Origin: Schmidtea polychroa
Taxonomy: Eukaryota
Length of the DNA: 64,000 nucleotides
Reading direction: 5' to 3'
Assembly: GCA_044892525.1 (NCBI GenBank)
Contig: CM097885.1
Coordinates: 17,610,001-17,674,000 of the forward strand
How positions within the stretch are numbered: the first letter of the stretch is position 1; the number at the start of each line of letters is the position of its first letter. Position numbers and translations under genes: made by a program. The notes below the pieces were generated by a model that was not told where the DNA came from, ran no database searches, and saw only the letters and a list, made by a program, of their open reading frames with translations. This document shows positions 1 through 64,000 of this stretch, piece after piece.

Positions 1-273
1 TGTTTACATGTCTTTGTTTAAAAAATGATGAGTCATATGTACTTTAATAATAAGTCATTGGCTTTGTTCCAAAATGATGAGTCATATGACCTTGACATGG
101 TTGCCATGGTTACCACAGTTGCTATGGATGAGTCATCGGGGGAAATCAGGAAAAAAAATCGAAAAAAAATCGAAAAAAAAATCGGAAAAAAAAATCAATA
201 AAAAAAAATCGAAAAAAAATGTGTCATTGGGGGAGGGGGGTATGATGAGTCATGGAGCACACTTCCCTCTACT
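1..273 (-). mobile_element. Orphan Polinton-type terminus (TIR end, begins ~55850 in the other copy)
   Basis: TGAGTCA-rich block with a G-run ending ...TTCCCTCTACT (reverse complement AGTAG...), like the other Polinton ends in the window. No matching opposite end was seen. Confidence 0.5.
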
Positions 274-2204
274 CAAGACCAAAGTTGGAAAATGCTTCAA
301 AGAAATGTTGAAAAGATGAAGAAATTTCTTAAAGAAGGGGATGTGAGGTGTTTTCAGCTGAGAGTTAAATATTTCAATGATTTATCAAAATAATTTTAAA
401 TTGTAAATAATTGACTATTTAAATAACTTTTAAATAATTTTTAAATTGGATTTTTTAAGTTGAAATATTTGAATTAAAAATTAAAATAGCTTTTTAAAAA
501 GAAGTTTTATTAATGAAAATTTTTTAAATAAATATGTTTTAAATATTGAAGTATTTTGATAAATGATTTTGAAAAACTTTTATTCAACGCTGAAAATTTG
601 TTTAAAATTAAACAATATGTGATATAATAAATATTTGGAATTATGTCGTTCACTTTTGAACCGGATTTAAAAAATAATTTAGAAGATGTGTTAGCAGCTT
701 CTAATACTTTCGATCAAGCTACCACTTACATAGTGATTAAAACGGGTCTTACGATATTTTTTATGTTAATAAAAGTTGGATAATATTTTTTTGGTTGTAT
801 TTAGTTAATCTTTTTAGACATTATTTTTTTATTGTATATTTTTCAACACACATTCACCCCAGCTGCCCCAAGACAGTTCATTTACTGGTGACTCGGCTGG
901 GCTCTTCAATTCTCCCCACACACACACACACACAAGCACCTAAAATACACAAATATAATATACACGTATAAACTATTAAACTTTATAACAGATATAACAA
1001 ATATTGTAATTTAAATGAATTTACTTGTTTATCAGATGTTATAATTAGTTATCAGTCTCTTTTGATAATTTTATGATAATTATTTTTAATGTAGATTGAT
1101 GACATTGATAATTGTAATGAATTTATACTGAATATTTGGAATATTTTGAGTAATCAGTCAATCAATTTGAGTACATGTATTACTTTTAAAAAAATAATTA
1201 AAATTAATTTATTTCAATTAATTTATTCAATTTAAATCAATTATCTACTTGATCTTATTTCAAAATTCTTATTAATTTATTATCTTAGTTGATGATTCAT
1301 ATTAACTTGAATGATTAGTATTTTTATTTACTAGATGATTAATGACTAGAATTTAAAGTTATTTGTTGTCCATTAATTACATTTTTATGATATTTATTTA
1401 TTATGTTTTGAATAATTTAAATTGTAATTAAAAATATTTTTGAACACAAATTAAAAATAAATTTAAAAAGTATTTGATAAAATATTTAGTTGATTGTAAG
1501 AGGTTAGTACTTGGTATCTGGTACCTAATCGGTTGCTTGTTGTTGGTTGTTAGTATATATTACCTATTTGTAGGTATTTAGTACTTATTTGTTAACGCCT
1601 AGCAAAAAATATTTAGTAGCTGGAAGTTGGTATCAGATATTAGGTAATATAAAAATTTCCATTAAAAATTATCTTAAAAAAATCTACATTTAAAATGAAC
1701 TTAAAAAAATATTCCATAAAGATTAAAAATCTATTAAAAATTTGCTTTGAAAAATATTTCATTAAAATTTTCATTAAAAATTACATTTCTCAAAGGAGTT
1801 ATTCAATCTTTTTTTAATAAATTAAAAAAATATTACTTTGATTTATTTATTACATTACTCTAATTTTCTTATTTAAAAATTATTACTTTAATTTACTTTT
1901 ATTTACTTTTATTTTTAAATTTTTACTTTAATTTACATAAATTAAAAATATTACTTTAACTTTAAAATGTTAGACCATTGATTACTTAATTTTAAAAATT
2001 AACTATTAATTTACCTATTTATCTTAATTAACTGAGCCATTATTTACTTTAATTCAATTTTTAGACCCTTAATTTAATTTAATTTAAATTAATTACCTTA
2101 AATTACTTATTTGAACTCATTGATTACTTTAATTTAAAATTTGAATCTTAATTTACTTATTTGAGCACATTGATTACTTTAATTCATTGAGTACTGTAAT
2201 TCAA

Positions 2205-2665
2205 AAATTTAACATGCTTTTTTAGTGAAGACACACTTTTTGTATGGAAATTCCCAGGACCAAGGAGACCCTCTTTAATTGTACTTGGAAAAATCCTTGC
2301 TTTTTTAGTGTAGACCCCCTTTTTTGTATTTTTATCGATAATTGAAATTTGTATTGAAAATCCCAAGACAAAGGACACCCACCCAAATAATACTGGCTTA
2401 TCCTTGGATTTTTAGTGAAGACCACTTTTTTCTATTGAAAAAATCCTGAGACCTTAAATTAGCATGCTTTTTTAGTGTAGACCACCTATTTGTTTTGAAA
2501 ACCCCAGGACCAAGAAGACCCACCTTAATTTATTTGGAAAATCAATGCTTTTTTATTGATAGTCGGATTTTGTATTGAAAATCCCAGGGCCAAGGAGACC
2601 CTCACTATAGTCAGAAAAATTTTGGCCTTTTTTCTATAGGTCCTTCTATTTGTATTGAAAAAATA
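2205..2665. repeat. Degenerate ~120 bp tandem repeat
   Basis: Recurring units such as GCTTTTTTAGTG(A/T)AGACC...GAAAA(T/C)CCCAGG..CCAAG.AGACCC. Confidence 0.6.
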
Positions 2666-4067
2666 TGTACAGCACTCTACAGCAATTGCGTAATCTACAA
2701 ATCAGAAAAAATTACTGCAGCAGATCCCCTTCCCGGGGACCCCCTCGGAAGGTCGTGCTGCAGAGGGCTCCTAACTACCCTACTATATCTCTATTCATAT
2801 TGGCTCTATATATTAATCAAATGAGTTTATTTAAACAAATATTCATAGTTGCCGCAATAACAGTATACATTTGAACAAAGATTGGATATCTCCATTCAAA
2901 ACTACTATAGGAATTGAAAGTCCCATGAAAACATGTAAATTTTACGATGCACTGTCATAAATAGAAGCGTTGAAAATATTTCAAAGTCCGTCGGACATAC
3001 CCGAATTTCAGCTTTATCGATTGTTTTTACCTAATCTTAATTCCTGGGAGAACCAAGAGAATTTTCGAGATATTTATTAAAGAATCCTCTTAATTGAATC
3101 AAGGCGCAACATTTTTGTTAAGGATGTCTCAAAATGTTCCAAAAATTATTCCTTAAAAACGCGAAATTTATACCGAAAAGAAATTTTAATCTGTGTCGAC
3201 AAATAACAAGTCTTTTTCATGGACCATGTCGGGGTGAAATCTTAAAATCTAAGAAAAGCACCTCTGACTATAGTCAGAAATAGCACTTTTAGTCATAATT
3301 TCCACTTTTCACTTTTATCACTTAAACATCAATAATGGCACTTTTTAATCAATATACACTTAAAAAATTGTACGCGCGATAACTCATCGATCAAACTCGC
3401 AATAAATCATCAATCAAAATGGGGGGTATATATGCGCGATAACTTATACTGATTCATGGGACTCACATCTATCTACTTGATTCGTTCAGAGGAGTTTTGC
3501 TTTTATAGACTGCACTTGTCCGACACTTTTTCATTCCTGTCTCTCCATAATTTGTACAGCTCCAGTGTTAACACTGACAGTTTGGCACTCAGAATAATTT
3601 GTCATTTTTTCCATTTCAGGATCTGACATTTTCCATACTTTTTTTCTATTTCCCACTTTATCTCTGAAAGTTTGTAGATGCCGATTTTGTTTTCGTTTCT
3701 GCATCATTTTCATTGCAGTTGGGTTTTTATCTGACGTCACCAATCTTTAATATTTTTTTCGATTAAAAAGTATCCTTCAATATTTTCTATTGGATAATGC
3801 GTATTAGTCATAATGCGTAAAAATAGTGCAATTAATAAATATAAATGCATCTGAAAGGTTTTATAAAGGTGCAATTAATATATTGATAAGCAATTAAGCT
3901 CTTCACTAAGCATTGCATTTTGTTGTATTAGAAAATGATCTAAATAGTTACCGTTGTCATGCTTGGAATCGTATATATCTGCAAAGTCTAATAGTGCGCA
4001 TCACGGCCAACGCCAACTTTATAAAAACCACAGTAAGCCATCAGTGATGCAAAACAAAACTTTATAA

Positions 4068-4510
4068 ATGCAAGACATAGATTTAGAAAATCGAGATCCA
4101 AAAAATATTAATTCATATATTTCGGTATGCAAATAATTTTATTCTTTTTGATCATCGTTGATTCATTCTAGACAGAATGGGAGGATAATTTCGCTGAACC
4201 TGGCGGGTTGAAATCATGCGATTGTTTGTGGAAATGTTCATTCAAATGTTTTCAATTCGGGCGGAATTGCTGCTATAGGTTTCTCAGTGGTCTCCTTGGG
4301 TTATGCATTGCACTTTATTGGGGATGTTGTTACGGATGCGTTGCCTTTTATTATATTTGGTGTATAACGCCTTGGCTCAAACTCTATATAATGCATTGTG
4401 CGTTCTGCAAGAAGATAAGTAAAGCTTTAATGGACTGTATCATTGGTCCCATTAGTGAGATTTGTGGAGTATGCGGAGGTTACTTCCGAGTAACAATGGA
4501 TAAATCTTGA
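4068..4510 (+). CDS. Caveolin family protein (host gene; exons 4068-4124 and 4172-4510; 131 aa)
   Basis: Spliced product is MQDIDLENRDPKNINSYIS-TEWEDNFAEPGGLKSCDCLWKCSF. It matches the caveolin RDP and FEDVIAEP-like signatures and has a hydrophobic hairpin. The 47 nt GT..AG intron is phase 0. Confidence 0.9.
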
Positions 4511-5060
4511 AAGCATTTGATTGTCATGAAATTTGTTAAAAAATAAAAATTATTATCTTTTAATAATAATAAATATTTCGCCAAGTGCGTTTGTTTTTAG
4601 AAAGAATCTACACCAACTTCTTTCTGTTACATTTCAATAATAATTTTGAAATGGAAATTTGTAGAACTTTCCTCAATCTAAATAAATAATTTTAATTAAT
4701 ATTTTTTAATTAATTTAAATTATTACTATTAATTATTTAATATCAAATGTTATTTTTAATTATATATTATTATTATAAATCTTTAGGTTTAAATTATTTT
4801 ATCAACAAAATATTCAACAACTCTATCTTTTAATAGTAAATCTTCAGAAATTCAACAAAATGTCCAATACCTTTAAACTTGAATAAAGAATTTAATTATG
4901 AAATTGGATAGCAAGGGTTTACCGTTTATAATATACAAAATGTTACAGATAAAAATAATAAAAAACATTGGAACATGGATTTTTCTTCTTCTGATATAAT
5001 TTTATCTCCTGGAACATACAAATTAAGTAATTTATTTTCAACAATCATAACCCTAGCAAT

Positions 5061-6268
5061 CAGGCGCGTACGCAGGATGAATCCATGGGGGGGGATTCAG
5101 AAAACATATTTTGTATATGTATTTTTATTTTTTCACGTAATAGCTAGCACTATTTACCAAATTTTATTCAAATTATATTTCACTTTATTTCAATATAAAA
5201 ACAATTACCTATAGGTATATTTTTCTCTCAACTTTTTTATAGAAAATTGTAAAGAAAACTAAATAAAAATTTATTAAGAAATATGAATAATAATTATACA
5301 TTATAAGAAAAATTAATATAAAATAAAATTAATATAAAATAGAATAAAAATTGCATATTCAGCAACAGGACTATTTTCTGAAAAAAATAAAAAGCGATAT
5401 AAATTAAGACTGAATTATATTCAAATTTCTAATTTACGTGAACTTTTTGCTAGTTCATCTAGAACTGCATCTGTAGAAATCGCGACATTACGATGAATAT
5501 TAAGTAACGCTAATCCACTTAACCTATCTTCACTCATTGTGTTGCGTAAATACGTTTTAAGTCGTCTCAATGTTGAAAAAGATCGTTCACTGCTTGATGT
5601 TGTAACTGGTAGTGTAGCAAATATTTTAAGTAATTTTCGAACAGTTGGGAAAATTGAATCGTCGCATGCTAAAAATGGATTATGAGCATTTTTTGGTGTA
5701 TTCGAAAAATTTAAAACATGGCGCCACCATAGCTTCAGCTCACTAACCTTTTCCACCTGCTAAACCAGCTGTATTGAAACTTTAAATTACGTTTTCCACT
5801 AACTGGGAATACAAATTTGTCGTCAGGATACCAAACGTTTTTCAACAAAAATAATCTTTTTTCATTGTCGTATTGGTCTTTTCCAATAAAATTACTAATA
5901 TCATTAATAATTACATTTGAATCTGATCCTGATGGAGACTCACATTCACATCCACTTACTGAAGCTGCAGCACTATCATTTTCACTAGGAACAGGAGCAA
6001 CCTGATCAGCTGTTCTTTCTAAATCACTTGTTTTAGATTTTTTAACAAAGTAATTTGTTAAAGTAGAATTTTTTAGTTTTCTTTTCTCGTTATTCATCTT
6101 CACAAAATATTATTTAAACAAATTTTAAAATTAACATTAAACAGAAATTAGACTTTCAAGTTCAAGAGAAAACAAAAAACAAAAAAAAACACGTTTGAAA
6201 ATTTAAAAACTCGACTGTTTGGGTCCCGCAATTATTATTATTAGTAATAGAAAGTACATTATCATTAT

Positions 6269-6328
<60 letters not shown>

Positions 6329-6358
6329 CAGTAAACCCCCCCCCTGCGTACGCGCATG
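5061..6358 (-). mobile_element. Internally deleted hAT DNA transposon
   Basis: TIRs CAGGCGCGTACGCAGG / CCTGCGTACGCGCATG. The 8 bp TSD is CTAGCAAT / CTAGCAAA (one mismatch). Confidence 0.9.
5421..6103 (-). pseudogene. hAT transposase remnant (N-terminus joined directly to the hATC dimerisation domain)
   Basis: The C-terminal part LPVTTSSSERSFSTLRRLKTYLRNTMSEDRLSGLALLNIH is the hATC motif. The N-terminal part RNLKFQYSWF resembles the start of a TTF zinc finger. The catalytic core is absent. Confidence 0.9.
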
Positions 6359-6964
6359 CTAGCAAAAGATTTTTTGAAGGCTAACAAAGTAAGTTTTTTA
6401 GATCAAATAGAACAATATAAATTGTGGTGTAAAATAGTTGCACTTTACTTTCACAATTTTTCTTTTCAATACTCTTTTTACCAACCTTTGATCACATCGG
6501 GCTAACCAAAATATGTTTGGTTATTGGGTTGGTGACAGTATTTGTAAATTTAAATGTTCACTCTGACTCCAAAGCGTGTTTTATTAATTCACAAATTGAC
6601 AATCCCGAACAAGATGAACCTTTATTAATGTTTACAATAAATCGTACAAATTGCAATTCTTAATTAACAGTGACCTTTGTTTTAATTTCTTGTTTGTTTT
6701 CCTTTATTTGATTTATCTTTCTCATTTCACATTTCTTTTTACTTTAGTTTTCTTCGAGTTCCCATAGATCGTCCCGTTTGTCATGACGATCTCCCCCAGG
6801 TAATATACTTATTTATTATACTTTTTGTTATTTAGGTAACCTCAACACAATATAAAAATAAATATACGTGAGATTCAGTTAAATTAATGAAATTTGCAGA
6901 AGATTCAAAAATTCATTTGACATTACATTTTCGTATAGTAAATGGCTAATTCAGATATTATTTC

Positions 6965-7545
6965 AGTAGGGTAATGTGTGGACCCGGGAACAAAGAACTA
7001 ATACGTAACCAATGACGTCACAAAGGGAAATTACGTAATACCCTCGTGGGGGGTTTTTTTTAATTTTAATTTTTTTTAAAAAAATTACATAACAGAGACA
7101 TATTACATAACAAAGACATATTACGTAACAAAGGAAAAATTTTAAACAAAGACATTTGAACAAAGGCACATGACTCATCATACTTTTTTCAATATATTAC
7201 GTTGCGGTATTTTAAAATTTAATTATATTTTAATCATTAAATATATTACGTTGCGGTATTTTAAAATTTAAATTTATTTTAAAAACTTATTTTGACGGTT
7301 AAGTTGACAAAATAAAATTATTGCACATACTTTGCATTATCATATATATAGTCTATCAGACAAGATATTCTGTTCCCCTGTGGGTAATGGTCACAAAGGT
7401 AAAGGTCACAAAGGTACTGCTAAAACTTTAACATATTATTACACAATGTATAAAAAATAGTATTAGTGTCCACACATGGTCATGCAACAAGTTAGTGTTC
7501 CCATCGATAGCTCATCTTAAAGTCTAGTGTAAGATTTATCTAATG

Positions 7546-7603
<58 letters not shown>

Positions 7604-7614
7604 ATTGGTAAAGA

Positions 7615-7666
<52 letters not shown>

Positions 7667-7880
7667 ATTATTTTTTTTATTATTATTTTTATTAATATTA
7701 TTATTATTATATAGTCCGAGTCTATCCGACAAGATATTCTGTCCCCCTATGAATAATGGTCACAAAGGTAAAGGTTACTAATGTACTGCTCGCAAGGGTA
7801 CTGCTAAAAATATTCAAGACAAAACTTTAACAAAGAAATTCTAAATATTATACTTTAAATATACACTCAAACTAAAATTT
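6965..7880 (+). repeat. Left TIR of outer Polinton
   Basis: Reverse-complement match to ~46925-47791, including (ATT)n tracts and the CCGACAAGATATTCTGTCCCCC motif. Confidence 0.88.
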
Positions 7881-8153
7881 ATTAACACATTCACATTCAT
7901 CATCTCCACGTTTCATAACATTTTCAACAACATGATCTATACAATCGCTATATACACGCGTTTCAGTATCCGTAAATTCCTCCATAGGTTCATCAATTTC
8001 TTGAATACTTTCCTCGTCATCTTGAGTGTTTTCTTCATCAGTTTCATCAAATCCCGAATCTTTACTCTCTGCTACCCACTCTATATTTAATGCATTTGTC
8101 ACATGTAATATATCTTCCATTTTCACACCAGATATTTCTGCTAATTTTTCCAA
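7872..8153 (-). CDS. Acidic hypothetical protein of outer Polinton
   Basis: 93 aa D/E-rich ORF next to the TIR. A fragment of its 3' end recurs at ~22125-22195. Confidence 0.4.
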   Translation of the reverse strand: MEKLAEISGVKMEDILHVTNALNIEWVAESKDSGFDETDEENTQDDEESIQEIDEPMEEFTDTETRVYSDCIDHVVENVMKRGDDECECVNKF

Positions 8154-8756: not shown

Positions 8757-8931
8757 CGTGAATTATGATTAAAATGAAATGGTATAGGGTTTTTATACCT
8801 ATGACTATAGTTTATCATCCAATCAGATTGCTGCATGTCTTTGTTTTAATTGCAATGATATCGCATTGATATTGCATTGATATTGCATTGGCACATGTTT
8901 TATATTATTAAAATTATTATTATTATTATTA

Positions 8932-9528
8932 TTATTGTTCATGTTTAAATTCAAGATCACGAATAATAATTTTATTTTTGAATAATAACAATTTGTCCAT
9001 GTCAATACCATAAGATAATGCCATCATTGAACAACCTAATGGTCGCATCTCAGTTGATTGGGTAGAAAGCTGCTTAATATCCGCAATAGAACGACATATT
9101 ATGTCGCAAGGCATTTCATATCCATGTTTATATCTAAATCGACCTGCTTCCATTTGTGCACGACATACTTGAGATCGATAATCAGGGATCATACCAGTCA
9201 TAACACCTCCAGTACTTTCAGTAATATTAAACAATTTTGTAGCTGAACTTTTCTCAATCATTTTATCTGGAACCTTTCTTTGTGTAGCTACTACATCAGA
9301 ATTATTGCATCGAATACCCACGGAAATCCGTCCACCAAATAAATTTAATATTAGTTGGCCAAAAACACCATTAAAGTTATCAGGATCTCTTGGGATCATA
9401 AAAATGGAACCATCAGTTTCGTTGGTAGTATTTCCAATTTCCATTGAGTTATCAGATTCATAAATTTCTTCATTAAAAGCAGCCATCATTAACAACTCTT
9501 TCCTTAAATCGAAACATAACTCATCCAA
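8932..9528 (-). CDS. Chimeric ORF containing a proteasome subunit alpha-6 (PSMA6-like) fragment, inside the 3' LTR
   Basis: TQRKVPDK, VMTGMIPDYRSQV, YKHGYEMP and IADIKQLSTQSTEMRPLGC match the central part of alpha-6. The N-terminal ~65 aa are unrelated. Confidence 0.85.
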   Translation of the reverse strand: MDELCFDLRKELLMMAAFNEEIYESDNSMEIGNTTNETDGSIFMIPRDPDNFNGVFGQLILNLFGGRISVGIRCNNSDVVATQRKVPDKMIEKSSATKLFNITESTGGVMTGMIPDYRSQVCRAQMEAGRFRYKHGYEMPCDIICRSIADIKQLSTQSTEMRPLGCSMMALSYGIDMDKLLLFKNKIIIRDLEFKHEQ

Positions 9529-9777
9529 TACAATCGATCGATAAAAATCTAAATCTAAAAATTAAATTACAACCAAACTAATTAATAAATATTGCCATAC
9601 TTCTTGCTCGCGTCTGTGTGCGCACACAGCCAAAAACAAAGAAAAGAAAAGCGCACACAGACGCGACACACCAACAACCCAACCCAAAAAATGACATTGC
9701 TCGCGTCTGTGTGCTCACACAAACCTATCACACAATACAACGCGCACACAGACGCGCATTGAGCTCATAATTCACCA
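8936..9777 (-). repeat. 3' LTR (842 bp)
   Basis: Near-identical to 12838-13586 and directly preceded on the minus strand by a polypurine tract. Confidence 0.92.
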
Positions 9778-9792
9778 TCCTCCCCCCCCTTG
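9778..9792 (-). promoter_or_regulatory. Polypurine tract
   Basis: AAG-run-AGGA purine tract directly upstream of the 3' LTR on the minus strand. Confidence 0.85.
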
Positions 9793-9877
9793 ACACCTTA
9801 GTGTCAATCTCAAATCCCCATCAGCTTCTCCTTCTTCTTTTATACTCAAACATAATTTGAAGATACATTCCCGTGTC

Positions 9878-10036
9878 AGTTTATCCCTTTTCCCCTTCAT
9901 TTCTTCCACTTCCCTCGCCATTTTATCCCTTTTCCCCTTCATTTTCTGCATTTCCCTCGCCATTTTATCCCTTCTCCCCTCCATTTTCTGCATTTTCCTC
10001 GCCATTTTATCCCTTTCCCCCTTCATTTCCTGCATT
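9878..10036. repeat. 42 bp tandem repeat (~4 copies)
   Basis: CCTCGCCATTTTATCCCTT..CCCCTTCATTTTCTGCATT units. Confidence 0.75.
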
Positions 10037-10115
10037 ATGGCTCAATCTCCAATAACCCTCACACACCCATCTTTGTATTATATAAGCCGCCGCACCACGC
10101 ACCTTTTTTGAAAGA

Positions 10116-10673
10116 TCAAAAAAAAAAAATTCTCCACCCACCATCGCTATACTCGGCCAAGCAGCTGTCCCTGTTCAGTTTGATTAGGTGTAATCTCTCC
10201 ATTATTCTTTCTCCCTTTTTCGCCAATTCCATATTCCACACTTTTCCCTGTTGCATTTCATTTAGTGACCAGTTTTCACTTAATGTTTTTATAAGCATCC
10301 TACAAAGTCGTTCTTTGATTGCTTCGTGTTTCGATTCCCCAATCGACACCTTGTCTTTCATGTGCATCTTTTGAGGCGTGCAAGCGAGTTCCAGTGACCC
10401 TTGTTGTTTTAAACTGTTCGATGATTCGTTCAATTTTTCCAAAACTTCTTTGGCCCCTTGATCATTATCACGTACAGTTTCCCATGATTTCCCATATACC
10501 ATACTGGTCTCCTTGTTTTGCCTCTCCCCTTTGGAGTCTTCTGCCCCTTTTACATTATCACGTTCTTCTTTTAGTCGATTAACTTCCCCTTCGTCGACCT
10601 GAATATCATTAACCGCCGCCTCGGGCGTTAAATCCTCTGATGTTGATTTGTCTTTTTCCCAATTACTCATCAC
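10116..10673 (-). CDS. Hypothetical charged protein in the LTR element
   Basis: 185 aa ORF downstream of gag with the same K/E-rich composition. No protease or RT motifs. Confidence 0.4.
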   Translation of the reverse strand: MMSNWEKDKSTSEDLTPEAAVNDIQVDEGEVNRLKEERDNVKGAEDSKGERQNKETSMVYGKSWETVRDNDQGAKEVLEKLNESSNSLKQQGSLELACTPQKMHMKDKVSIGESKHEAIKERLCRMLIKTLSENWSLNEMQQGKVWNMELAKKGERIMERLHLIKLNRDSCLAEYSDGGWRIFFF

Positions 10674-10804
10674 TTACGTTGTCTTCGGTTCCACAATTTT
10701 ATCGTCGGATAATTTTATGATCTCACCAGCCCGGCAAGCCTCATCTTGCTTTTCCCCTGTATTCATTTTTCCTTGAACATTTTGTGTGATTGTCATAACG
10801 TTAA

Positions 10805-12622
10805 CTAATTCGTTAGTTCTTCCAGAATTGAATATTTGCCATCTAAATGACTCTGAGCTCCTTGCTCTTCATTAGATGCCTTACTCCTGTGGAGTGGCGT
10901 GTCCTCAATTCCTCGAGATGCCCGTAACTCGTCATTGAACATTTCAGTTACCGCAAAATAACTCTGAACCGTCCTCATTGATGCGTTTTCATTTAATAAT
11001 TCGTTGTGTCTTTGCTTACATCCGGTAACCTTGCAGAAAGATTCTTTACGGCATTCCTTGGCCATGTGATTTCTTTTGAAGCAATTCCTGCACAGTTTCA
11101 TTTCTTCGATGACTCTCTTCCTTTCTGAAATTGTGAGTTGCTTAAACTTGTCACATTGGTCTAGGTAATGTTGACCACCACATTCTACACACTCTGATCT
11201 ATAGCCGTTAGAGTTATTCACCTGTATAACCGTTCCACTTTTAACTCTGCCATTTGGTTGCCCCGTAAAATGCGTCCGACCTCCTGGATTGAAGCTTTCT
11301 CTTTCTCTAGACACACCTTCTACTCTTGGCCCATCATAAGTCCTGGTGCTTGATTGAGTCCCATACACGACCTCGTTAGTGGACCTTAGGATCTCCGCTT
11401 CTTGTTGTATCCATCTTCTCAAATCCTCTATCGTCTCCCGCAATTCCTTTTCTATTTTCTCTTTCTTCCATTTATACACAAGATCCGTTGTTAACTTGCT
11501 CAAACACTTTTGAAAAAGATATCCAGTCTTTAACTCGGTTTCTTTCCCAGTGGATTTAAATCGCACGGTGACTGTTTCTAATAATCCAACAAATAAGTCT
11601 AGATCCTTCAAATCTCCTTCTCGAATTGGCCTGAACTTGTCCATCTCCTCTAACATTGATAAATATATCCTTTCATCCCCACCATATATCCTATCCAACT
11701 TCTCTTTTGCCATTTGATAAGCCTCTGCCGAATATTCTAGATTTTCAATTAACTTTAATGGCTCTCCGTGAAGGTACTTGTGCAGGTGAAACATCTTTTC
11801 AACCTCATCACCTTCCGCTTCGTCAACACACGCCGTAAAAGCTGCTTTGCATGGTTCGTACTCTTTCATCTTGCCTTCAAAAACAGGGATTGTAATTTTC
11901 TGTAGACTTTCCAGTTTTCTTTTATGCACGGAATTATTCTTCTTGAAGGTATCATCATTCACATTTTCCTTCTCTTCCATAACAGATTGATTTGCTTTTC
12001 TTTCCATCAATGCCCCAATCATTTGATGTTTTTCCTCGATCTCTTGCAGGTCTTTATCTAAGATTGCAGTGATGTCCAATCTTTGCAATTTTTTACTGAT
12101 CGTTCTCAGATCCCCTAATTCTTCATCTAGACTCTCCTTTTGATCTTCATATTCCGCCAACCATTCGCTAACATCCTTCCCATTTATATCATTGAGAATC
12201 TTGTTTCTCAATCTCGTTAATTTTCCTTTTTTCATTCTCTTTTTCCACAGTCCTTCTTCTAAAATCTCTTCGTCATTGCCCCCGCACAGCCTGAGTGACA
12301 AATGAAGTGTCGAACCTACTTGTATCCTATAATCGTTCAATCTTCTTCTATTTTCTAATTGCTTTCCTGCGTGTACTAACATTTGATAATTTACCGGAAT
12401 TCCTTCTTTGTCCTGGATTTTTCCTTTTACCTTTTCAATTGTGTCGTTCCATTCAACATCAAGAGTAATTGTCTTACCAGTAAGAGTTTTGACAAATATT
12501 TGACTTTCCCATCGCAACTCAAAACCCATTACTCCGCTCGCCCTCACCCTTGACTCATCTCTGTTCTTTACCCTGATCCCCTGGCTTCCCCCTTTAAAAA
12601 AGTGCTGGGGCCATAGCAGCAC
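10805..12622 (-). CDS. Ubiquitin-Gag fusion (BEL/Pao gag)
   Basis: Ubiquitin domain [17 protein letters not shown]...[12 protein letters not shown] is followed by a DUF1759-like region (IPVFEG...LHKYLHGEP) and three Cys/His knuckles ([37 protein letters not shown]). The true start is probably an internal ATG. Confidence 0.9.
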
Positions 12623-12803
12623 TTTCCCACGCTCGGTAGGGAAGGGAGGATGATTAATTTTACAAAAATAAAGTTCAAATAAATGAAAATAAAATTTACA
12701 TCACCCTTGATGATTAATTTTACAAAAATAAAATTCGAATAAATGAAAATAAAATTTACATCACCCTTGATCAGCCGGGCTGTCTCCACTGAAACATTGG
12801 TGC

Positions 12804-13430
12804 CTAGCCCCCTGAAGGGAACCATGCTCTGCTACCATGTTCATGTTTAAATTCAAGATCACGAATAATAATTTTATTTTTGAATAATAACAATTTGTCC
12901 ATGTCAATACCATAAGATAATGCCATCATTGAACAACCTAATGGTCGCATCTCAGTTGATTGGGTAGAAAGCTGCTTAATATCCGCAATAGAACGACATA
13001 TTATGTCGCAAGGCATTTCATATCCATGTTTATATCTAAATCGACCTGCTTCCATTTGTGCACGACATACTTGAGATCGATAATCAGGGATCATACCAGT
13101 CATAACACCTCCAGTACTTTCAGTAATATTAAACAATCTTGTAGCTGAACTCTTCTCAATCATTTTATCTGGAACCTTTCTTTGTGTAGCTACTACATCA
13201 GAATTATTGCATCGAATACCCACGGAAATCCGTCCACCAAATAAATTTAATATTAGTTGGCCAAAAACACCATTAAAGTTATCAGGATCTCTTGGGATCA
13301 TAAAAATGGAACCATCAGTTTCGTTGGTAGTATTTCCAATTTCCATTGAGTTATCAGATTCATAAATTTCTTCATTAAAAGCAGCCATCATTAACAACTC
13401 TTTCCTTAAATCGAAACATAACTCATCCAA
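12804..13430 (-). CDS. Second copy of the PSMA6-fragment chimeric ORF (5' LTR, reading through the PBS)
   Basis: Same protein as 8932-9528 except one K/R change and the C-terminus. Confidence 0.85.
   Translation of the reverse strand: MDELCFDLRKELLMMAAFNEEIYESDNSMEIGNTTNETDGSIFMIPRDPDNFNGVFGQLILNLFGGRISVGIRCNNSDVVATQRKVPDKMIEKSSATRLFNITESTGGVMTGMIPDYRSQVCRAQMEAGRFRYKHGYEMPCDIICRSIADIKQLSTQSTEMRPLGCSMMALSYGIDMDKLLLFKNKIIIRDLEFKHEHGSRAWFPSGG
12820..12837 (-). promoter_or_regulatory. Primer binding site complementary to initiator tRNA-Met
   Basis: TGGTAGCAGAGCATGGTT directly follows the 5' LTR on the minus strand. Confidence 0.85.
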
Positions 13431-13586
13431 TACAATCGATCGATAAAAATCTAAATCTAAAAATTAAATTACAACCAAACTAATTAATAAATATTGCCAT
13501 ACTTCTTGCTCGCGTCTGTGTGCGCACACAAACCCATCACACAATACAACGCGCACACAAACGCGCATTGAGCTCATAATTCACCA
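12838..13586 (-). repeat. 5' LTR (749 bp)
   Basis: Matches 8936-9777 apart from a few substitutions and a 93 bp repeat-unit indel. Confidence 0.92.
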
Positions 13587-13733
<147 letters not shown>

Positions 13734-14137: not shown

Positions 14138-14470
14138 TTACTTAAACACATTCAAAATCTCCGTGGAACGGGCAACTTGATCATTTATTTTTGGATTTAA
14201 ATATCTAATCAACAATGCCTCACAAGTTACTCGTTCCCAATAATTACTTAAACCTTTTGAAATAATTTTAAAATCAGAGATACCTATTTTTTTACTGACA
14301 CATTTCCTAACATGATTACTAATATTAGTCAATCCTTTTGGTCGACAGTGTTCAAGAACTCGGGTGCAGAGATGACGGGCAGTCTCTCCAATGTATGTGG
14401 CATTACACCCATTACATGAAAATTGATACACGAGCTCAGAACACAAACCAATTGGCGTTGGACATTTACT
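14138..14470 (-). pseudogene. GIY-YIG endonuclease domain of Penelope-like element
   Basis: LVYQFSCNGCNATYIGETARHLCTRVLEH...EALLI...PKIN. Confidence 0.9.
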
Positions 14471-14845
14471 AGTATGCGTACGTCTGAATCTGAGGTACCT
14501 ATTGATCCTGAGGAAAGTAGTATGTTAAATTCGGAAAGTGACAAGAATCGATCCAATCGCATGGAGCCGAAATATGTGTTAGTATTGCCTTATTCTGAGG
14601 GTTTCAGAGAATTTAAACATAAAATTCTCAAATATGTAGACAAGGATCAATTCAGGATTGTTTCCACTTCTTGCAAAGTTAGCAGTATGTTTACTAGTAA
14701 ATCCCAGAGAAATGTATTGATAATTCGAAAATCCAGATTCTGGTTTCATTGTAAATTAAGTTTGGGATTATTGCAACATCTCGATCTTTGAGAATATCAT
14801 ACATTTGCGGGTAATAAAAATACAATCTTTCCAGTATTATTGCAA

Positions 14846-55801: not shown

Positions 55802-58800
55802 TAATAATAATAATTTTGATAATAACATCTTTGTTCTAGTGGAGTCCTGAGTCATCGTTCTAATCGTGTGGGTTAGTCTTTGTCTTAAAAATATATGATT
55901 GGTCTTTGTTCAAAAAAGTCATCGATGAGTCATACAAATGGGGGGGCTAGTGCACAATAAATAATAACTCCTTATTTAAACTATGAGTCGTCGATGAGTC
56001 TTTGTCTATATGTCTTTGTTTAAATGTATTTATTTCAATATTTGTTTACATGTCTTTGTTTAAAAAATGATGAGTCATATGTACTTTAATAATAAGTCAT
56101 TGGCTTTGTTCCAAAATGATGAGTCATATGACCTTGACATGGTTGCCATGGTTACCACAGTTGCTATGGATGAGTCATCGGGGGAAATCAGGAAAAAAAA
56201 TCGAAAAAAAATCGAAAAAAAAATCGGAAAAAAAAATCAATAAAAAAAAATCGAAAAAAAATGTGTCATTGGGGGAGGGGGGTATGATGAGTCATGGAGC
56301 ACACTTCCCTCTACTCAAGACCAAAGTTGGAAAATGCTTCAAAGAAATGTTGAAAAGATGAAGAAATTTCTTAAAGAAGGGGATGTGAGGTGTTTTCAGC
56401 TGAGAGTTAAATATTTCAATGATTTATCAAAATAATTTTAAATTGTAAATAATTGACTATTTAAATAACTTTTAAATAATTTTTAAATTGGATTTTTTAA
56501 GTTGAAATATTTGAATTAAAAATTAAAATAGCTTTTTAAAAAGAAGTTTTATTAATGAAAATTTTTTAAATAAATATGTTTTAAATATTGAAGTATTTTG
56601 ATAAATGATTTTGAAAAACTTTTATTCAACGCTGAAAATTTGTTTAAAATTAAACAATATGTGATATAATAAATATTTGGAATTATGTCGTTCACTTTTG
56701 AACCGGATTTAAAAAATAATTTAGAAGATGTGTTAGCAGCTTCTAATACTTTCGATCAAGCTACCACTTACATAGTGATTAAAACGGGTCTTACGATATT
56801 TTTTATGTTAATAAAAGTTGGATAATATTTTTTTGGTTGTATTTAGTTAATCTTTTTAGACATTATTTTTTTATTGTATATTTTTCAACACACATTCACC
56901 CCAGCTGCCCCAAGACAGTTCATTTACTGGTGACTCGGCTGGGCTCTTCAATTCTCCCCACACACACACACACACAAGCACCTAAAATACACAAATATAA
57001 TATACACGTATAAACTATTAAACTTTATAACAGATATAACAAATATTGTAATTTAAATGAATTTACTTGTTTATCAGATGTTATAATTAGTTATCAGTCT
57101 CTTTTGATAATTTTATGATAATTATTTTTAATGTAGATTGATGACATTGATAATTGTAATGAATTTATACTGAATATTTGGAATATTTTGAGTAATCAGT
57201 CAATCAATTTGAGTACATGTATTACTTTTAAAAAAATAATTAAAATTAATTTATTTCAATTAATTTATTCAATTTAAATCAATTATCTACTTGATCTTAT
57301 TTCAAAATTCTTATTAATTTATTATCTTAGTTGATGATTCATATTAACTTGAATGATTAGTATTTTTATTTACTAGATGATTAATGACTAGAATTTAAAG
57401 TTATTTGTTGTCCATTAATTACATTTTTATGATATTTATTTATTATGTTTTGAATAATTTAAATTGTAATTAAAAATATTTTTGAACACAAATTAAAAAT
57501 AAATTTAAAAAGTATTTGATAAAATATTTAGTTGATTGTAAGAGGTTAGTACTTGGTATCTGGTACCTAATCGGTTGCTTGTTGTTGGTTGTTAGTATAT
57601 ATTACCTATTTGTAGGTATTTAGTACTTATTTGTTAACGCCTAGCAAAAAATATTTAGTAGCTGGAAGTTGGTATCAGATATTAGGTAATATAAAAATTT
57701 CCATTAAAAATTATCTTAAAAAAATCTACATTTAAAATGAACTTAAAAAAATATTCCATAAAGATTAAAAATCTATTAAAAATTTGCTTTGAAAAATATT
57801 TCATTAAAATTTTCATTAAAAATTACATTTCTCAAAGGAGTTATTCAATCTTTTTTTAATAAATTAAAAAAATATTACTTTGATTTATTTATTACATTAC
57901 TCTAATTTTCTTATTTAAAAATTATTACTTTAATTTACTTTTATTTACTTTTATTTTTAAATTTTTACTTTAATTTACATAAATTAAAAATATTACTTTA
58001 ACTTTAAAATGTTAGACCATTGATTACTTAATTTTAAAAATTAACTATTAATTTACCTATTTATCTTAATTAACTGAGCCATTATTTACTTTAATTCAAT
58101 TTTTAGACCCTTAATTTAATTTAATTTAAATTAATTACCTTAAATTACTTATTTGAACTCATTGATTACTTTAATTTAAAATTTGAATCTTAATTTACTT
58201 ATTTGAGCACATTGATTACTTTAATTCATTGAGTACTGTAATTCAAAAATTTAACATGCTTTTTTAGTGAAGACACACTTTTTGTATGGAAATTCCCAGG
58301 ACCAAGGAGACCCTCTTTAATTGTACTTGGAAAAATCCTTGCTTTTTTAGTGTAGACCCCCTTTTTTGTATTTTTATCGATAATTGAAATTTGTATTGAA
58401 AATCCCAAGACAAAGGACACCCACCCAAATAATACTGGCTTATCCTTGGATTTTTAGTGAAGACCACTTTTTTCTATTGAAAAAATCCTGAGACCTTAAA
58501 TTAGCATGCTTTTTTAGTGTAGACCACCTATTTGTTTTGAAAACCCCAGGACCAAGAAGACCCACCTTAATTTATTTGGAAAATCAATGCTTTTTTATTG
58601 ATAGTCGGATTTTGTATTGAAAATCCCAGGGCCAAGGAGACCCTCACTATAGTCAGAAAAATTTTGGCCTTTTTTCTATAGGTCCTTCTATTTGTATTGA
58701 AAAAATATGTACAGCACTCTACAGCAATTGCGTAATCTACAAATCAGAAAAAATTACTGCAGCAGATCCCCTTCCCGGGGACCCCCTCGGAAGGTCGTGC

Positions 58801-60109
58801 TGCAGAGGGCTCCTAACTACCCTACTATATCTCTATTCATATTGGCTCTATATATTAATCAAATGAGTTTATTTAAACAAATATTCATAGTTGCCGCAAT
58901 AACAGTATACATTTGAACAAAGATTGGATATCTCCATTCAAAACTACTATAGGAATTGAAAGTCCCATGAAAACATGTAAATTTTACGATGCACTGTCAT
59001 AAATAGAAGCGTTGAAAATATTTCAAAGTCCGTCGGACATACCCGAATTTCAGCTTTATCGATTGTTTTTACCTAATCTTAATTCCTGGGAGAACCAAGA
59101 GAATTTTCGAGATATTTATTAAAGAATCCTCTTAATTGAATCAAGGCGCAACATTTTTGTTAAGGATGTCTCAAAATGTTCCAAAAATTATTCCTTAAAA
59201 ACGCGAAATTTATACCGAAAAGAAATTTTAATCTGTGTCGACAAATAACAAGTCTTTTTCATGGACCATGTCGGGGTGAAATCTTAAAATCTAAGAAAAG
59301 CACCTCTGACTATAGTCAGAAATAGCACTTTTAGTCATAATTTCCACTTTTCACTTTTATCACTTAAACATCAATAATGGCACTTTTTAATCAATATACA
59401 CTTAAAAAATTGTACGCGCGATAACTCATCGATCAAACTCGCAATAAATCATCAATCAAAATGGGGGGTATATATGCGCGATAACTTATACTGATTCATG
59501 GGACTCACATCTATCTACTTGATTCGTTCAGAGGAGTTTTGCTTTTATAGACTGCACTTGTCCGACACTTTTTCATTCCTGTCTCTCCATAATTTGTACA
59601 GCTCCAGTGTTAACACTGACAGTTTGGCACTCAGAATAATTTGTCATTTTTTCCATTTCAGGATCTGACATTTTCCATACTTTTTTTCTATTTCCCACTT
59701 TATCTCTGAAAGTTTGTAGATGCCGATTTTGTTTTCGTTTCTGCATCATTTTCATTGCAGTTGGGTTTTTATCTGACGTCACCAATCTTTAATATTTTTT
59801 TCGATTAAAAAGTATCCTTCAATATTTTCTATTGGATAATGCGTATTAGTCATAATGCGTAAAAATAGTGCAATTAATAAATATAAATGCATCTGAAAGG
59901 TTTTATAAAGGTGCAATTAATATATTGATAAGCAATTAAGCTCTTCACTAAGCATTGCATTTTGTTGTATTAGAAAATGATCTAAATAGTTACCGTTGTC
60001 ATGCTTGGAATCGTATATATCTGCAAAGTCTAATAGTGCGCATCACGGCCAACGCCAACTTTATAAAAACCACAGTAAGCCATCAGTGATGCAAAACAAA
60101 ACTTTATAA

Positions 60110-60552
60110 ATGCAAGACATAGATTTAGAAAATCGAGATCCAAAAAATATTAATTCATATATTTCGGTATGCAAATAATTTTATTCTTTTTGATCATCGT
60201 TGATTCATTCTAGACAGAATGGGAGGATAATTTCGCTGAACCTGGCGGGTTGAAATCATGCGATTGTTTGTGGAAATGTTCATTCAAATGTTTTCAATTC
60301 GGGCGGAATTGCTGCTATAGGTTTCTCAGTGGTCTCCTTGGGTTATGCATTGCACTTTATTGGGGATGTTGTTACGGATGCGTTGCCTTTTATTATATTT
60401 GGTGTATAACGCCTTGGCTCAAACTCTATATAATGCATTGTGCGTTCTGCAAGAAGATAAGTAAAGCTTTAATGGACTGTATCATTGGTCCCATTAGTGA
60501 GATTTGTGGAGTATGCGGAGGTTACTTCCGAGTAACAATGGATAAATCTTGA
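60110..60552 (+). CDS. Caveolin family protein (duplicate copy)
   Basis: Same sequence as 4068-4510. Confidence 0.9.
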
Positions 60553-61102
60553 AAGCATTTGATTGTCATGAAATTTGTTAAAAAATAAAAATTATTATCT
60601 TTTAATAATAATAAATATTTCGCCAAGTGCGTTTGTTTTTAGAAAGAATCTACACCAACTTCTTTCTGTTACATTTCAATAATAATTTTGAAATGGAAAT
60701 TTGTAGAACTTTCCTCAATCTAAATAAATAATTTTAATTAATATTTTTTAATTAATTTAAATTATTACTATTAATTATTTAATATCAAATGTTATTTTTA
60801 ATTATATATTATTATTATAAATCTTTAGGTTTAAATTATTTTATCAACAAAATATTCAACAACTCTATCTTTTAATAGTAAATCTTCAGAAATTCAACAA
60901 AATGTCCAATACCTTTAAACTTGAATAAAGAATTTAATTATGAAATTGGATAGCAAGGGTTTACCGTTTATAATATACAAAATGTTACAGATAAAAATAA
61001 TAAAAAACATTGGAACATGGATTTTTCTTCTTCTGATATAATTTTATCTCCTGGAACATACAAATTAAGTAATTTATTTTCAACAATCATAACCCTAGCA
61101 AT

Positions 61103-62310
61103 CAGGCGCGTACGCAGGATGAATCCATGGGGGGGGATTCAGAAAACATATTTTGTATATGTATTTTTATTTTTTCACGTAATAGCTAGCACTATTTACC
61201 AAATTTTATTCAAATTATATTTCACTTTATTTCAATATAAAAACAATTACCTATAGGTATATTTTTCTCTCAACTTTTTTATAGAAAATTGTAAAGAAAA
61301 CTAAATAAAAATTTATTAAGAAATATGAATAATAATTATACATTATAAGAAAAATTAATATAAAATAAAATTAATATAAAATAGAATAAAAATTGCATAT
61401 TCAGCAACAGGACTATTTTCTGAAAAAAATAAAAAGCGATATAAATTAAGACTGAATTATATTCAAATTTCTAATTTACGTGAACTTTTTGCTAGTTCAT
61501 CTAGAACTGCATCTGTAGAAATCGCGACATTACGATGAATATTAAGTAACGCTAATCCACTTAACCTATCTTCACTCATTGTGTTGCGTAAATACGTTTT
61601 AAGTCGTCTCAATGTTGAAAAAGATCGTTCACTGCTTGATGTTGTAACTGGTAGTGTAGCAAATATTTTAAGTAATTTTCGAACAGTTGGGAAAATTGAA
61701 TCGTCGCATGCTAAAAATGGATTATGAGCATTTTTTGGTGTATTCGAAAAATTTAAAACATGGCGCCACCATAGCTTCAGCTCACTAACCTTTTCCACCT
61801 GCTAAACCAGCTGTATTGAAACTTTAAATTACGTTTTCCACTAACTGGGAATACAAATTTGTCGTCAGGATACCAAACGTTTTTCAACAAAAATAATCTT
61901 TTTTCATTGTCGTATTGGTCTTTTCCAATAAAATTACTAATATCATTAATAATTACATTTGAATCTGATCCTGATGGAGACTCACATTCACATCCACTTA
62001 CTGAAGCTGCAGCACTATCATTTTCACTAGGAACAGGAGCAACCTGATCAGCTGTTCTTTCTAAATCACTTGTTTTAGATTTTTTAACAAAGTAATTTGT
62101 TAAAGTAGAATTTTTTAGTTTTCTTTTCTCGTTATTCATCTTCACAAAATATTATTTAAACAAATTTTAAAATTAACATTAAACAGAAATTAGACTTTCA
62201 AGTTCAAGAGAAAACAAAAAACAAAAAAAAACACGTTTGAAAATTTAAAAACTCGACTGTTTGGGTCCCGCAATTATTATTATTAGTAATAGAAAGTACA
62301 TTATCATTAT

Positions 62311-62370
<60 letters not shown>

Positions 62371-62400
62371 CAGTAAACCCCCCCCCTGCGTACGCGCATG
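61103..62400 (-). mobile_element. Deleted hAT transposon (duplicate copy)
   Basis: Same sequence as 5061-6358. Confidence 0.9.
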
Positions 62401-63006
62401 CTAGCAAAAGATTTTTTGAAGGCTAACAAAGTAAGTTTTTTAGATCAAATAGAACAATATAAATTGTGGTGTAAAATAGTTGCACTTTACTTTCACAATT
62501 TTTCTTTTCAATACTCTTTTTACCAACCTTTGATCACATCGGGCTAACCAAAATATGTTTGGTTATTGGGTTGGTGACAGTATTTGTAAATTTAAATGTT
62601 CACTCTGACTCCAAAGCGTGTTTTATTAATTCACAAATTGACAATCCCGAACAAGATGAACCTTTATTAATGTTTACAATAAATCGTACAAATTGCAATT
62701 CTTAATTAACAGTGACCTTTGTTTTAATTTCTTGTTTGTTTTCCTTTATTTGATTTATCTTTCTCATTTCACATTTCTTTTTACTTTAGTTTTCTTCGAG
62801 TTCCCATAGATCGTCCCGTTTGTCATGACGATCTCCCCCAGGTAATATACTTATTTATTATACTTTTTGTTATTTAGGTAACCTCAACACAATATAAAAA
62901 TAAATATACGTGAGATTCAGTTAAATTAATGAAATTTGCAGAAGATTCAAAAATTCATTTGACATTACATTTTCGTATAGTAAATGGCTAATTCAGATAT
63001 TATTTC

Positions 63007-63587
63007 AGTAGGGTAATGTGTGGACCCGGGAACAAAGAACTAATACGTAACCAATGACGTCACAAAGGGAAATTACGTAATACCCTCGTGGGGGGTTTTT
63101 TTTAATTTTAATTTTTTTTAAAAAAATTACATAACAGAGACATATTACATAACAAAGACATATTACGTAACAAAGGAAAAATTTTAAACAAAGACATTTG
63201 AACAAAGGCACATGACTCATCATACTTTTTTCAATATATTACGTTGCGGTATTTTAAAATTTAATTATATTTTAATCATTAAATATATTACGTTGCGGTA
63301 TTTTAAAATTTAAATTTATTTTAAAAACTTATTTTGACGGTTAAGTTGACAAAATAAAATTATTGCACATACTTTGCATTATCATATATATAGTCTATCA
63401 GACAAGATATTCTGTTCCCCTGTGGGTAATGGTCACAAAGGTAAAGGTCACAAAGGTACTGCTAAAACTTTAACATATTATTACACAATGTATAAAAAAT
63501 AGTATTAGTGTCCACACATGGTCATGCAACAAGTTAGTGTTCCCATCGATAGCTCATCTTAAAGTCTAGTGTAAGATTTATCTAATG

Positions 63588-63645
<58 letters not shown>

Positions 63646-63656
63646 ATTGGTAAAGA

Positions 63657-63708
<52 letters not shown>

Positions 63709-64000
63709 ATTATTTTTTTTATTATTATTTTTATTAATATTATTATTATTATATAGTCCGAGTCTATCCGACAAGATATTCTGTCCCCCTATGAATAATG
63801 GTCACAAAGGTAAAGGTTACTAATGTACTGCTCGCAAGGGTACTGCTAAAAATATTCAAGACAAAACTTTAACAAAGAAATTCTAAATATTATACTTTAA
63901 ATATACACTCAAACTAAAATTTATTAACACATTCACATTCATCATCTCCACGTTTCATAACATTTTCAACAACATGATCTATACAATCGCTATATACACG
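63007..64000 (+). mobile_element. Left end of outer Polinton (duplicate copy)
   Basis: Same sequence as 6965-7958. Confidence 0.9.

Follow-up and report, generated by a model that had tools for sequence, protein, structure and literature searches.

Long terminal repeat (LTR)-mediated retroposition has been described in animals by Tan et al. (2016) (PMC5131818). Here we analyze a 64,000-nucleotide stretch of the AT-rich, 781-Mb genome of the flatworm Schmidtea polychroa (assembly GCA_044892525.1, contig CM097885.1, positions 17,610,001 to 17,674,000), hereafter the window, in which a gag-only BEL/Pao LTR retrotransposon on the minus strand (13586..8936) carries an intronless piece of the host proteasome gene PSMA6 inside each LTR. 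As in the retrocopies of Tan et al., the captured sequences are partial, intronless mRNA pieces joined into multigene chimeras, with short matches at the junctions, a bias toward sense and in-frame orientation and repeated copying. However, whereas the retrocopy in those cases replaces part of the internal open reading frames (ORFs) and disables the element, here it lies inside both LTRs, upstream of Gag, occurs also on pol-bearing elements and has been turned over repeatedly (PMC5131818). Of the features that mark Tan-type retrocopies, an intronless partial mRNA copy and a short match at the switch point (at one junction) are thus found here, while a location between the LTRs is not.

The BEL/Pao survey of de la Chaux and Wagner (2011) describes the same DUF1759 Gag, Pao peptidase, reverse transcriptase (RT), integrase and DUF5641 in one ORF, in elements of about 7.75 kb, and reports two planarian families (PMC3118150); the present family possibly belongs to the Flow families of Schmidtea. 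Its main text is silent on ubiquitin, the proteasome and host genes, although its supplements and the 2008 Repbase report that it cites may bear on the matter. Host-derived sequence in both LTRs, as seen here, is also present in Cassandra, Helenus and Ajax, but there it is conserved small-RNA gene sequence that serves as a promoter and is noncoding, whereas here it consists of protein-coding mosaics in the Gag frame (bioRxiv 10.1101/2023.07.14.548913, PMC10886601). The maize element Bs1 carries a chimeric ORF from three host genes, but that cargo occupies an internal position and has become fixed in few copies, and in BARE-2 foreign sequence was switched into the LTR, but from a retrotransposon rather than from host coding sequence (PMC13317346). 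In the cytopathic pestiviruses, a captured ubiquitin is a host-cleaved processing signal; in bovine viral diarrhea virus CP Rit and Osloss it lies inside the polyprotein after unrelated host residues, and host hydrolases give the next protein its authentic N terminus, a layout similar to that found here (PMC8310069). Those are one-off mutants of an RNA virus in which cleavage was shown, whereas the present case is a fixed family trait with a diverged ubiquitin whose cleavage we infer (PMC8310069).

Each ingredient of this layout is known singly: mRNA capture through template switching, LTRs that carry host sequence, a Gag that starts in the LTR, and ubiquitin serving as a processing signal. 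In yeast Ty1, the GAG frame opens within the 5′ LTR and crosses the tRNA-iMet primer-binding site (PBS); the Ty1 LTR holds only a few GAG codons, which are element specific and not exchangeable. Our literature search, which did not extend to Repbase and most subscription papers, found no description of all of these together, as a cassette in the LTR, in frame with Gag, in which fragments of host coding sequence turn over.

Our data show that the LTRs contain mosaics of spliced host mRNAs, that in this family one continuous ORF of about 2,190 codons begins in the LTR, crosses the PBS and reaches integrase, and that the reading frame of the cargo is selected while the protein that it spells is not. 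On balance, and with reservations set out below, we favor the explanation that the PSMA6 piece is a frame-selected, exchangeable passenger at the front of a polyprotein, cut off at the ubiquitin Gly-Gly.

Host mRNA mosaics inside the LTRs

The 5′ LTR (12838..13586, minus strand, as are all parts of the element below) is 749 bp long and the 3′ LTR (8936..9777) 842 bp, and both have TG...CA ends. They differ by four substitutions, in keeping with the few originally reported, and by a 93-bp segment absent from the 5′ copy, which had been overlooked. A PBS for tRNA-Met(CAT) (12820..12837) matches the 3′ end of this genome's tRNA-Met(CAT) gene at 17 of 18 bases, other family copies matching fully, and a polypurine tract (9778..9791) adjoins the 3′ LTR. 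With its paired LTRs, PBS and polypurine tract the element is an LTR retrotransposon, which bears out the LTR-PBS-gag-PPT-LTR layout of the original prediction. The 5-bp target site duplication that it listed is present (ATTAT, 8931..8935 and 13587..13591) but lies in a (TTA)n microsatellite and is uninformative at this locus; support comes instead from the family, in which a perfect 5-bp duplication flanks 10 of the 11 solo LTRs that could be scored (26 loci tested, 15 dropped as not solo or without a scorable end). The tRNA-Met(CAT) genes themselves (L241, contig C1, 79.33-79.39 Mb) stand in 454-bp tandem arrays, and their 3′-end pattern has 1,228 exact matches genome-wide.

Each LTR carries an ORF without any stop inside the LTR itself. 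In the 5′ LTR it opens with the first Met of MMAAF and closes at a stop 11 codons beyond the LTR end (12804..13391), and in the 3′ LTR it stops only in the flanking microsatellite (8932..9489). PF00227 matches the two ORFs at residues 77-185 (E 7e-23 and 3e-22) and, among the best 120 homologues, those with names are all of the alpha-6 type, the rest being unnamed, which confirms the PSMA6-like stretch reported in both. The PSMA6 piece (12878..13242 in the 5′ LTR; 8976..9340 in the 3′ LTR, placed by the PF00227 match and host alignment) corresponds to host residues ~32-153 with 92% identity to the host coding sequence and aligns with residues 35-144 of human/mouse PSMA6. The host PSMA6 gene (locus L031) has three GT-AG introns, and the LTR piece spans the position of intron 2 (junction 13024/13023) without the intron; therefore, it was derived from mRNA. 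The finding of this intronless piece in both LTRs upholds the view that captured host PSMA6 mRNA is copied at every retrotransposition.

The acidic N terminus fused to the PSMA6 piece (13233..13361, and again at 9331-9459) had been described as new. This we reject, because the sequence is supplied by exons of one single host locus, whose 45-nt intron is missing in the LTR. Further exons of this locus encode a RING finger, with a Pfam score below the cut-off, and we take the gene to be an RNF115/126-like RING ligase; judged by sequence, the donor is likely an E3 ligase gene. Where the RING-ligase piece meets the PSMA6 piece, the two host genes have 9 nt in common (one junction examined), a match expected from template switching of the kind described for LTR-mediated retroposition (PMC5131818). 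Two orphan cargos of young subfamilies also map exon by exon onto host loci. These donors (L268 and L269) are multi-exon genes of unknown family, and the ESM Atlas gave no usable match for the two cargos.

Genome-wide, we counted 331 exact LTR-end/PBS junctions and 653 exact copies of a 32-nt word common to the cargo and host PSMA6. The composition of the slot was scored in 66 elements taken by their PBS, after four duplicates among 70 had been dropped; this sample and the 140 insertions analyzed below were drawn largely from the first two thirds of contig C1. PSMA6 cargo is present in 36 of the 66, always in the sense orientation, with at least 300 nt kept in 19, and is absent in 30. EAP30/Vps22, Rab, phosphatase, adaptin-type, coatomer-type, chaperonin, HSP70 and cofilin pieces occupy the same slot in sister copies, so the ubiquitin-proteasome theme proposed for the element is weakened. 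The PSMA6 piece varies from about 24 to 175 residues between insertions, with variable breakpoints, and in none of the 140 does it cover residues 1-11 or extend beyond residue 190. Young subfamilies sweep with single cargos, and cargo-bearing LTRs are also found on pol-bearing copies.

Other intronless PSMA6 copies (L033-L038 and L106-L108), covering residues 12-187 at 94-98% identity, lie behind the same short LTR motif with no internal sequence nearby, several of them in a tandem array at 15.5-16.1 Mb of contig C1; they are probably solo LTRs from an earlier capture stage. A decayed intronless copy of residues 102-227 (L032, contig C3, 79.62 Mb) lies outside the LTR family. At L167 the PSMA6-bearing frame continues into further sequence that, as we read it, resembles a ClpP fragment.

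A single reading frame from the LTR to integrase

In relatives of the window copy, the stop-free LTR ORF crosses the PBS and an AT-rich leader, takes in ubiquitin and continues into Gag-Pol. One full-length relative has a single ORF of 2,189 amino acids comprising ubiquitin, DUF1759, RT, a Pao peptidase (PF05380)/RNase H region, integrase and DUF5641, and the DUF1759 Gag, PF05380, RT, integrase and DUF5641 in one ORF identify it as BEL/Pao. At least 100 open codons precede the PBS in the Gag frame in 47 of the 66 elements, compared to 0 and 1 in the other two frames. Of 33 copies located through Gag, 28 preserve the frame between PBS and ubiquitin, across nine different lengths of this interval; in the PBS sample, 38 of 50 elements have ubiquitin in frame. 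The leader of one copy, although 83% AT, has no stop in frame versus 6 and 9 in the other frames (shuffle P 0.0008).

The window copy is a young gag-only member of the family in which this read-through is now broken. The PBS reads His-Gly-Ser-Arg-Ala-Trp-Phe in the frame of the LTR ORF, which ends at the stop 11 codons past the 5′ LTR, and the AT-rich leader (12506..12819), with a 60-bp tandem repeat, leaves ubiquitin-Gag in another frame. Domain scans recovered both proteins that had been predicted there, a diverged ubiquitin ending in Leu-Arg-Leu-Cys-Gly-Gly (12278..12505) and a BEL/Pao Gag with DUF1759 and Cys-His knuckles (10805..12277); pol is absent, and Gag was the only BEL/Pao protein that the scan detected in this copy. 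Sequence comparison places a filler of ~1 kb with 42-bp tandem repeats in the position of pol (9792..10804), and all 12 of the 12 other short copies tested have it in common. Just before ubiquitin, the leader contains a hairpin-like segment (12580-12640), seen by eye only and conserved in this lineage, which is a candidate packaging signal.

The window ubiquitin has 20 of 75 residues changed, none of them at 14 positions that we assume to form the core (P 0.008), and its Ile44 patch is altered. Gly-Gly is retained in 46 of 51 scored ubiquitin ends, and Leu-x-Gly-Gly directly precedes Gag in two Gag lineages that are mutually no more than 32% identical. Moreover, BEL/Pao Gags from outside begin within about 5-13 residues of the Gly-Gly point. 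The Gly-Gly is thus located at the native start of related Gags, as in a layout with ubiquitin as the processing signal. A homologue search with Gag only, which is weak on range, returned 13 long proteins of 21-41% identity, and a ubiquitin domain is listed in none of the 13 (7 rescanned); the search with ubiquitin-Gag was swamped by polyubiquitins. Comparison of nonsynonymous and synonymous substitution rates (dN/dS) with host ubiquitin was unusable, the synonymous sites being saturated even between host units. The second Gag lineage (L114, L121 and L138; PBS at about 1500) has the same PBS junction and two ubiquitins. It also has LTR cargos in common with the window lineage, which at the sequence level points to LTR exchange between distant families.

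Irrespective of cargo, 58 of 66 elements have AATAAA or ATTAAA no more than 70 nt from the LTR end, the usual distance being 35 or 41 nt; in the window copy a candidate poly(A) signal, AATAAA, lies 41 nt before the LTR end (12873..12878, and 8971-8976 in the 3′ LTR). With a poly(A)-type hexamer in this position, a translated cargo would have to sit in a long R region. Transcription would start upstream of the LTR ATG and place the cargo within an R region that, at some 550 nt, would be unusually long. While copying this region, RT may jump to copackaged mRNAs at short matches, and normal strand transfers would then place the captured piece in both LTRs. The cargo is likely translated as the front end of a ubiquitin-Gag-Pol polyprotein, and host deubiquitinases are predicted, and likely, to sever it at the ubiquitin Gly-Gly. 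As ubiquitin would yield the correct Gag terminus irrespective of the sequence before it, the element would tolerate any sense piece free of stops, and captures would therefore pile up and displace one another.

Four of 15 sequencing runs were inspected for expression, the RNA nature of those that yielded contigs being only a guess. Contigs from runs X1-X3 cover family sequence, with poly-T ends at two A-rich internal sites in X2; within this sample, no contig settled the start, splicing or read-through. Run X3 is labeled as another organism, and its contigs match Gag and ubiquitin (window 10200-12700) at about 94-98%, as could result from a sister species, a mislabel or horizontal transfer.

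Selection on the frame and competing explanations

To separate selection on the frame from selection on the protein, 140 independent insertions were compared with the host coding sequence, with variants private to one insertion taken as postinsertion changes and those shared by at least three copies as changes in active lineages. Second LTRs of one element had been dropped, together with eight duplicates, segmental or tandem, and a separate processed copy; about 26 loci had been selected for their resemblance to the window, and a subset without them was also tested. Private variants comprised 148 nonsynonymous (N) and 58 synonymous (S) changes and 13 stops among 219 (dN/dS, or omega, 0.76), and shared variants 85 N, 29 S and 0 stops among 114 (omega 0.87; 0.98 for variants in at least 10 copies). 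The N/S ratios do not differ (p 0.69), whereas stops are depleted among shared variants (p 0.0055). Among 46 private indels, 34 disrupt the frame; the sole shared frameshifts are a compensating −1/+1 pair in nine copies. As controls, the same test on 36 elements gave 27 N to 36 S in Gag (omega 0.26) and 8 to 22 in integrase (omega 0.12), with a contrast between PSMA6 and Gag of p 4e-5; the leader gave an omega of 1.33. The element thus provides a natural case of selection on a reading frame but not on the encoded protein, with Gag and integrase as internal controls.

No purifying selection on conserved PSMA6 residues was found among the 140 insertions: 34 of 83 shared amino acid changes fall at conserved positions versus 41% expected, which is the chance rate. 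In the window copy, 6 of 16 changes do so versus 6.4 expected, and Gly43, Tyr124, Ala128 and Asp143, which are 97-100% conserved in 119 homologues, have been lost. The original prediction had named a dN/dS near 1 against host PSMA6 as the value that would refute a decoy, and this is the value obtained (window copy, pN 0.061 and pS 0.072, the proportions of N and S differences; shared variants, omega 0.87-0.98). With the frame selected and the protein not, the decoy is contradicted, and the cargo appears to be read. The passive cargo that it had offered as the alternative fits the dN/dS but not the stops, since plain passivity leaves no selection on the reading frame.

That PSMA6 acts as a decoy alpha subunit disturbing proteasome assembly is scarcely credible to us. 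It is the commonest cargo, retained at 300 nt or more in 19 of 66 elements, and is one of three ubiquitin-system pieces in the window copy, but it lacks the gate at the N terminus as well as the C-terminal half of the fold, some subfamilies keep about 24 residues only and 30 of 66 elements have none. We rejected the decoy on the lack of purifying selection and the incomplete alpha/beta sandwich; a single-sequence AlphaFold model of the LTR ORF (predicted local distance difference test score, 30) was uninformative. A role as genuine accessory proteins, subject to diversifying selection, for some of the released cargo-linker-ubiquitin products, with the LTR slot as their testing ground, is highly improbable: although trafficking and proteostasis genes recur, an omega near 1 can mask mixed selection and young subfamilies show single-cargo sweeps, conserved positions change at the chance rate in PSMA6, the only cargo tested, and the domains are fragmentary with variable breakpoints. 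We also regard it as distinctly unlikely that the host pieces act as RNA, either as camouflage from silencing by PIWI-interacting RNAs (piRNAs), which are costly when they target essential genes, or as a source of small RNAs that reduce the mRNA levels of host PSMA6 and other housekeeping genes. The unconstrained protein sequence, the 653 exact word copies in common with the host gene, the housekeeping nature of the donors and the precedent of TART-A, which acts in the latter way on nxf2 (PMC7785250), would suit an RNA function; however, the copies have drifted to 74-98% identity to the host with no synonymous constraint visible, the remainder of the element would still be targetable and a role as RNA does not need the frame selection observed.

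Several observations weigh against the passenger explanation. Only 3 of 37 copies examined are open from the LTR to the end of pol, all three with non-PSMA6 cargo. Of 66 elements, 52 keep a donor-like AAG|GTA at 40 nt beyond the start of the PBS, and splicing there could yield other products; in addition, the leader has its own Met codons and upstream ATGs exist in the LTR. The stop deficit is weaker in stricter subsets (p 0.038, 0.047 and 0.054), and the private omega, at 0.76 rather than 1, is a rough neutral yardstick. Shared variants in ubiquitin (9 N to 4 S, omega 0.80, few in number) show no clear purifying selection, and its Arg42 and Arg74, which deubiquitinases use, are changed. Finally, none of the other cargos tested comes close to PSMA6 in frequency, an excess for which passenger status accounts through a founder effect only. 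The donor-like site, the changed arginines and altered Ile44 patch, and the long open frames that gag-only copies keep too, would fit a frame kept open merely to escape nonsense-mediated decay or to give ribosomes access to Gag, with ubiquitin remaining uncut as a folded tag (for solubility, localization or recruitment of the endosomal sorting complexes required for transport) or with Gag made from a spliced or internally initiated message. We consider this rather unlikely: Gly-Gly is retained in most copies and coincides exactly with the native start of Gag in two distant lineages of that protein, the altered Ile44 patch also speaks against binding to ubiquitin receptors, and uncut Gag would bear a variable extension of 250-350 amino acids.

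If the PSMA6 piece is a cleaved passenger, a simple rule would follow for the tolerance of repeated host-gene capture, namely that a cleavable ubiquitin shields the capsid. We suggest more tentatively, as a possibility that we would not yet lean toward, that the LTR has turned into a gene-sampling cassette, in which ubiquitin uncouples Gag while the R region captures, shuffles and expresses host mRNA fragments, so that hundreds of solo LTRs, each a promoter plus ORF, could form an exon-shuffling engine and a source of accessory or host genes. In practical terms, the many PSMA6-word copies and those of other housekeeping genes may confound annotation, read mapping, RNA interference specificity and piRNA studies in this flatworm.

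Two further features of the window were observed. Positions 1-7958 and 56043-64000 are identical at 7,958 of 7,958 bases, and the element is repeated identically 56,042 bp away, which reflects either a tandem duplication that took place very recently or an artefact of the assembly. On the minus strand at 14138-14524, an ORF remnant resembling GIY-YIG (E 0.002, below the cut-off) is probably a Penelope-type fragment.

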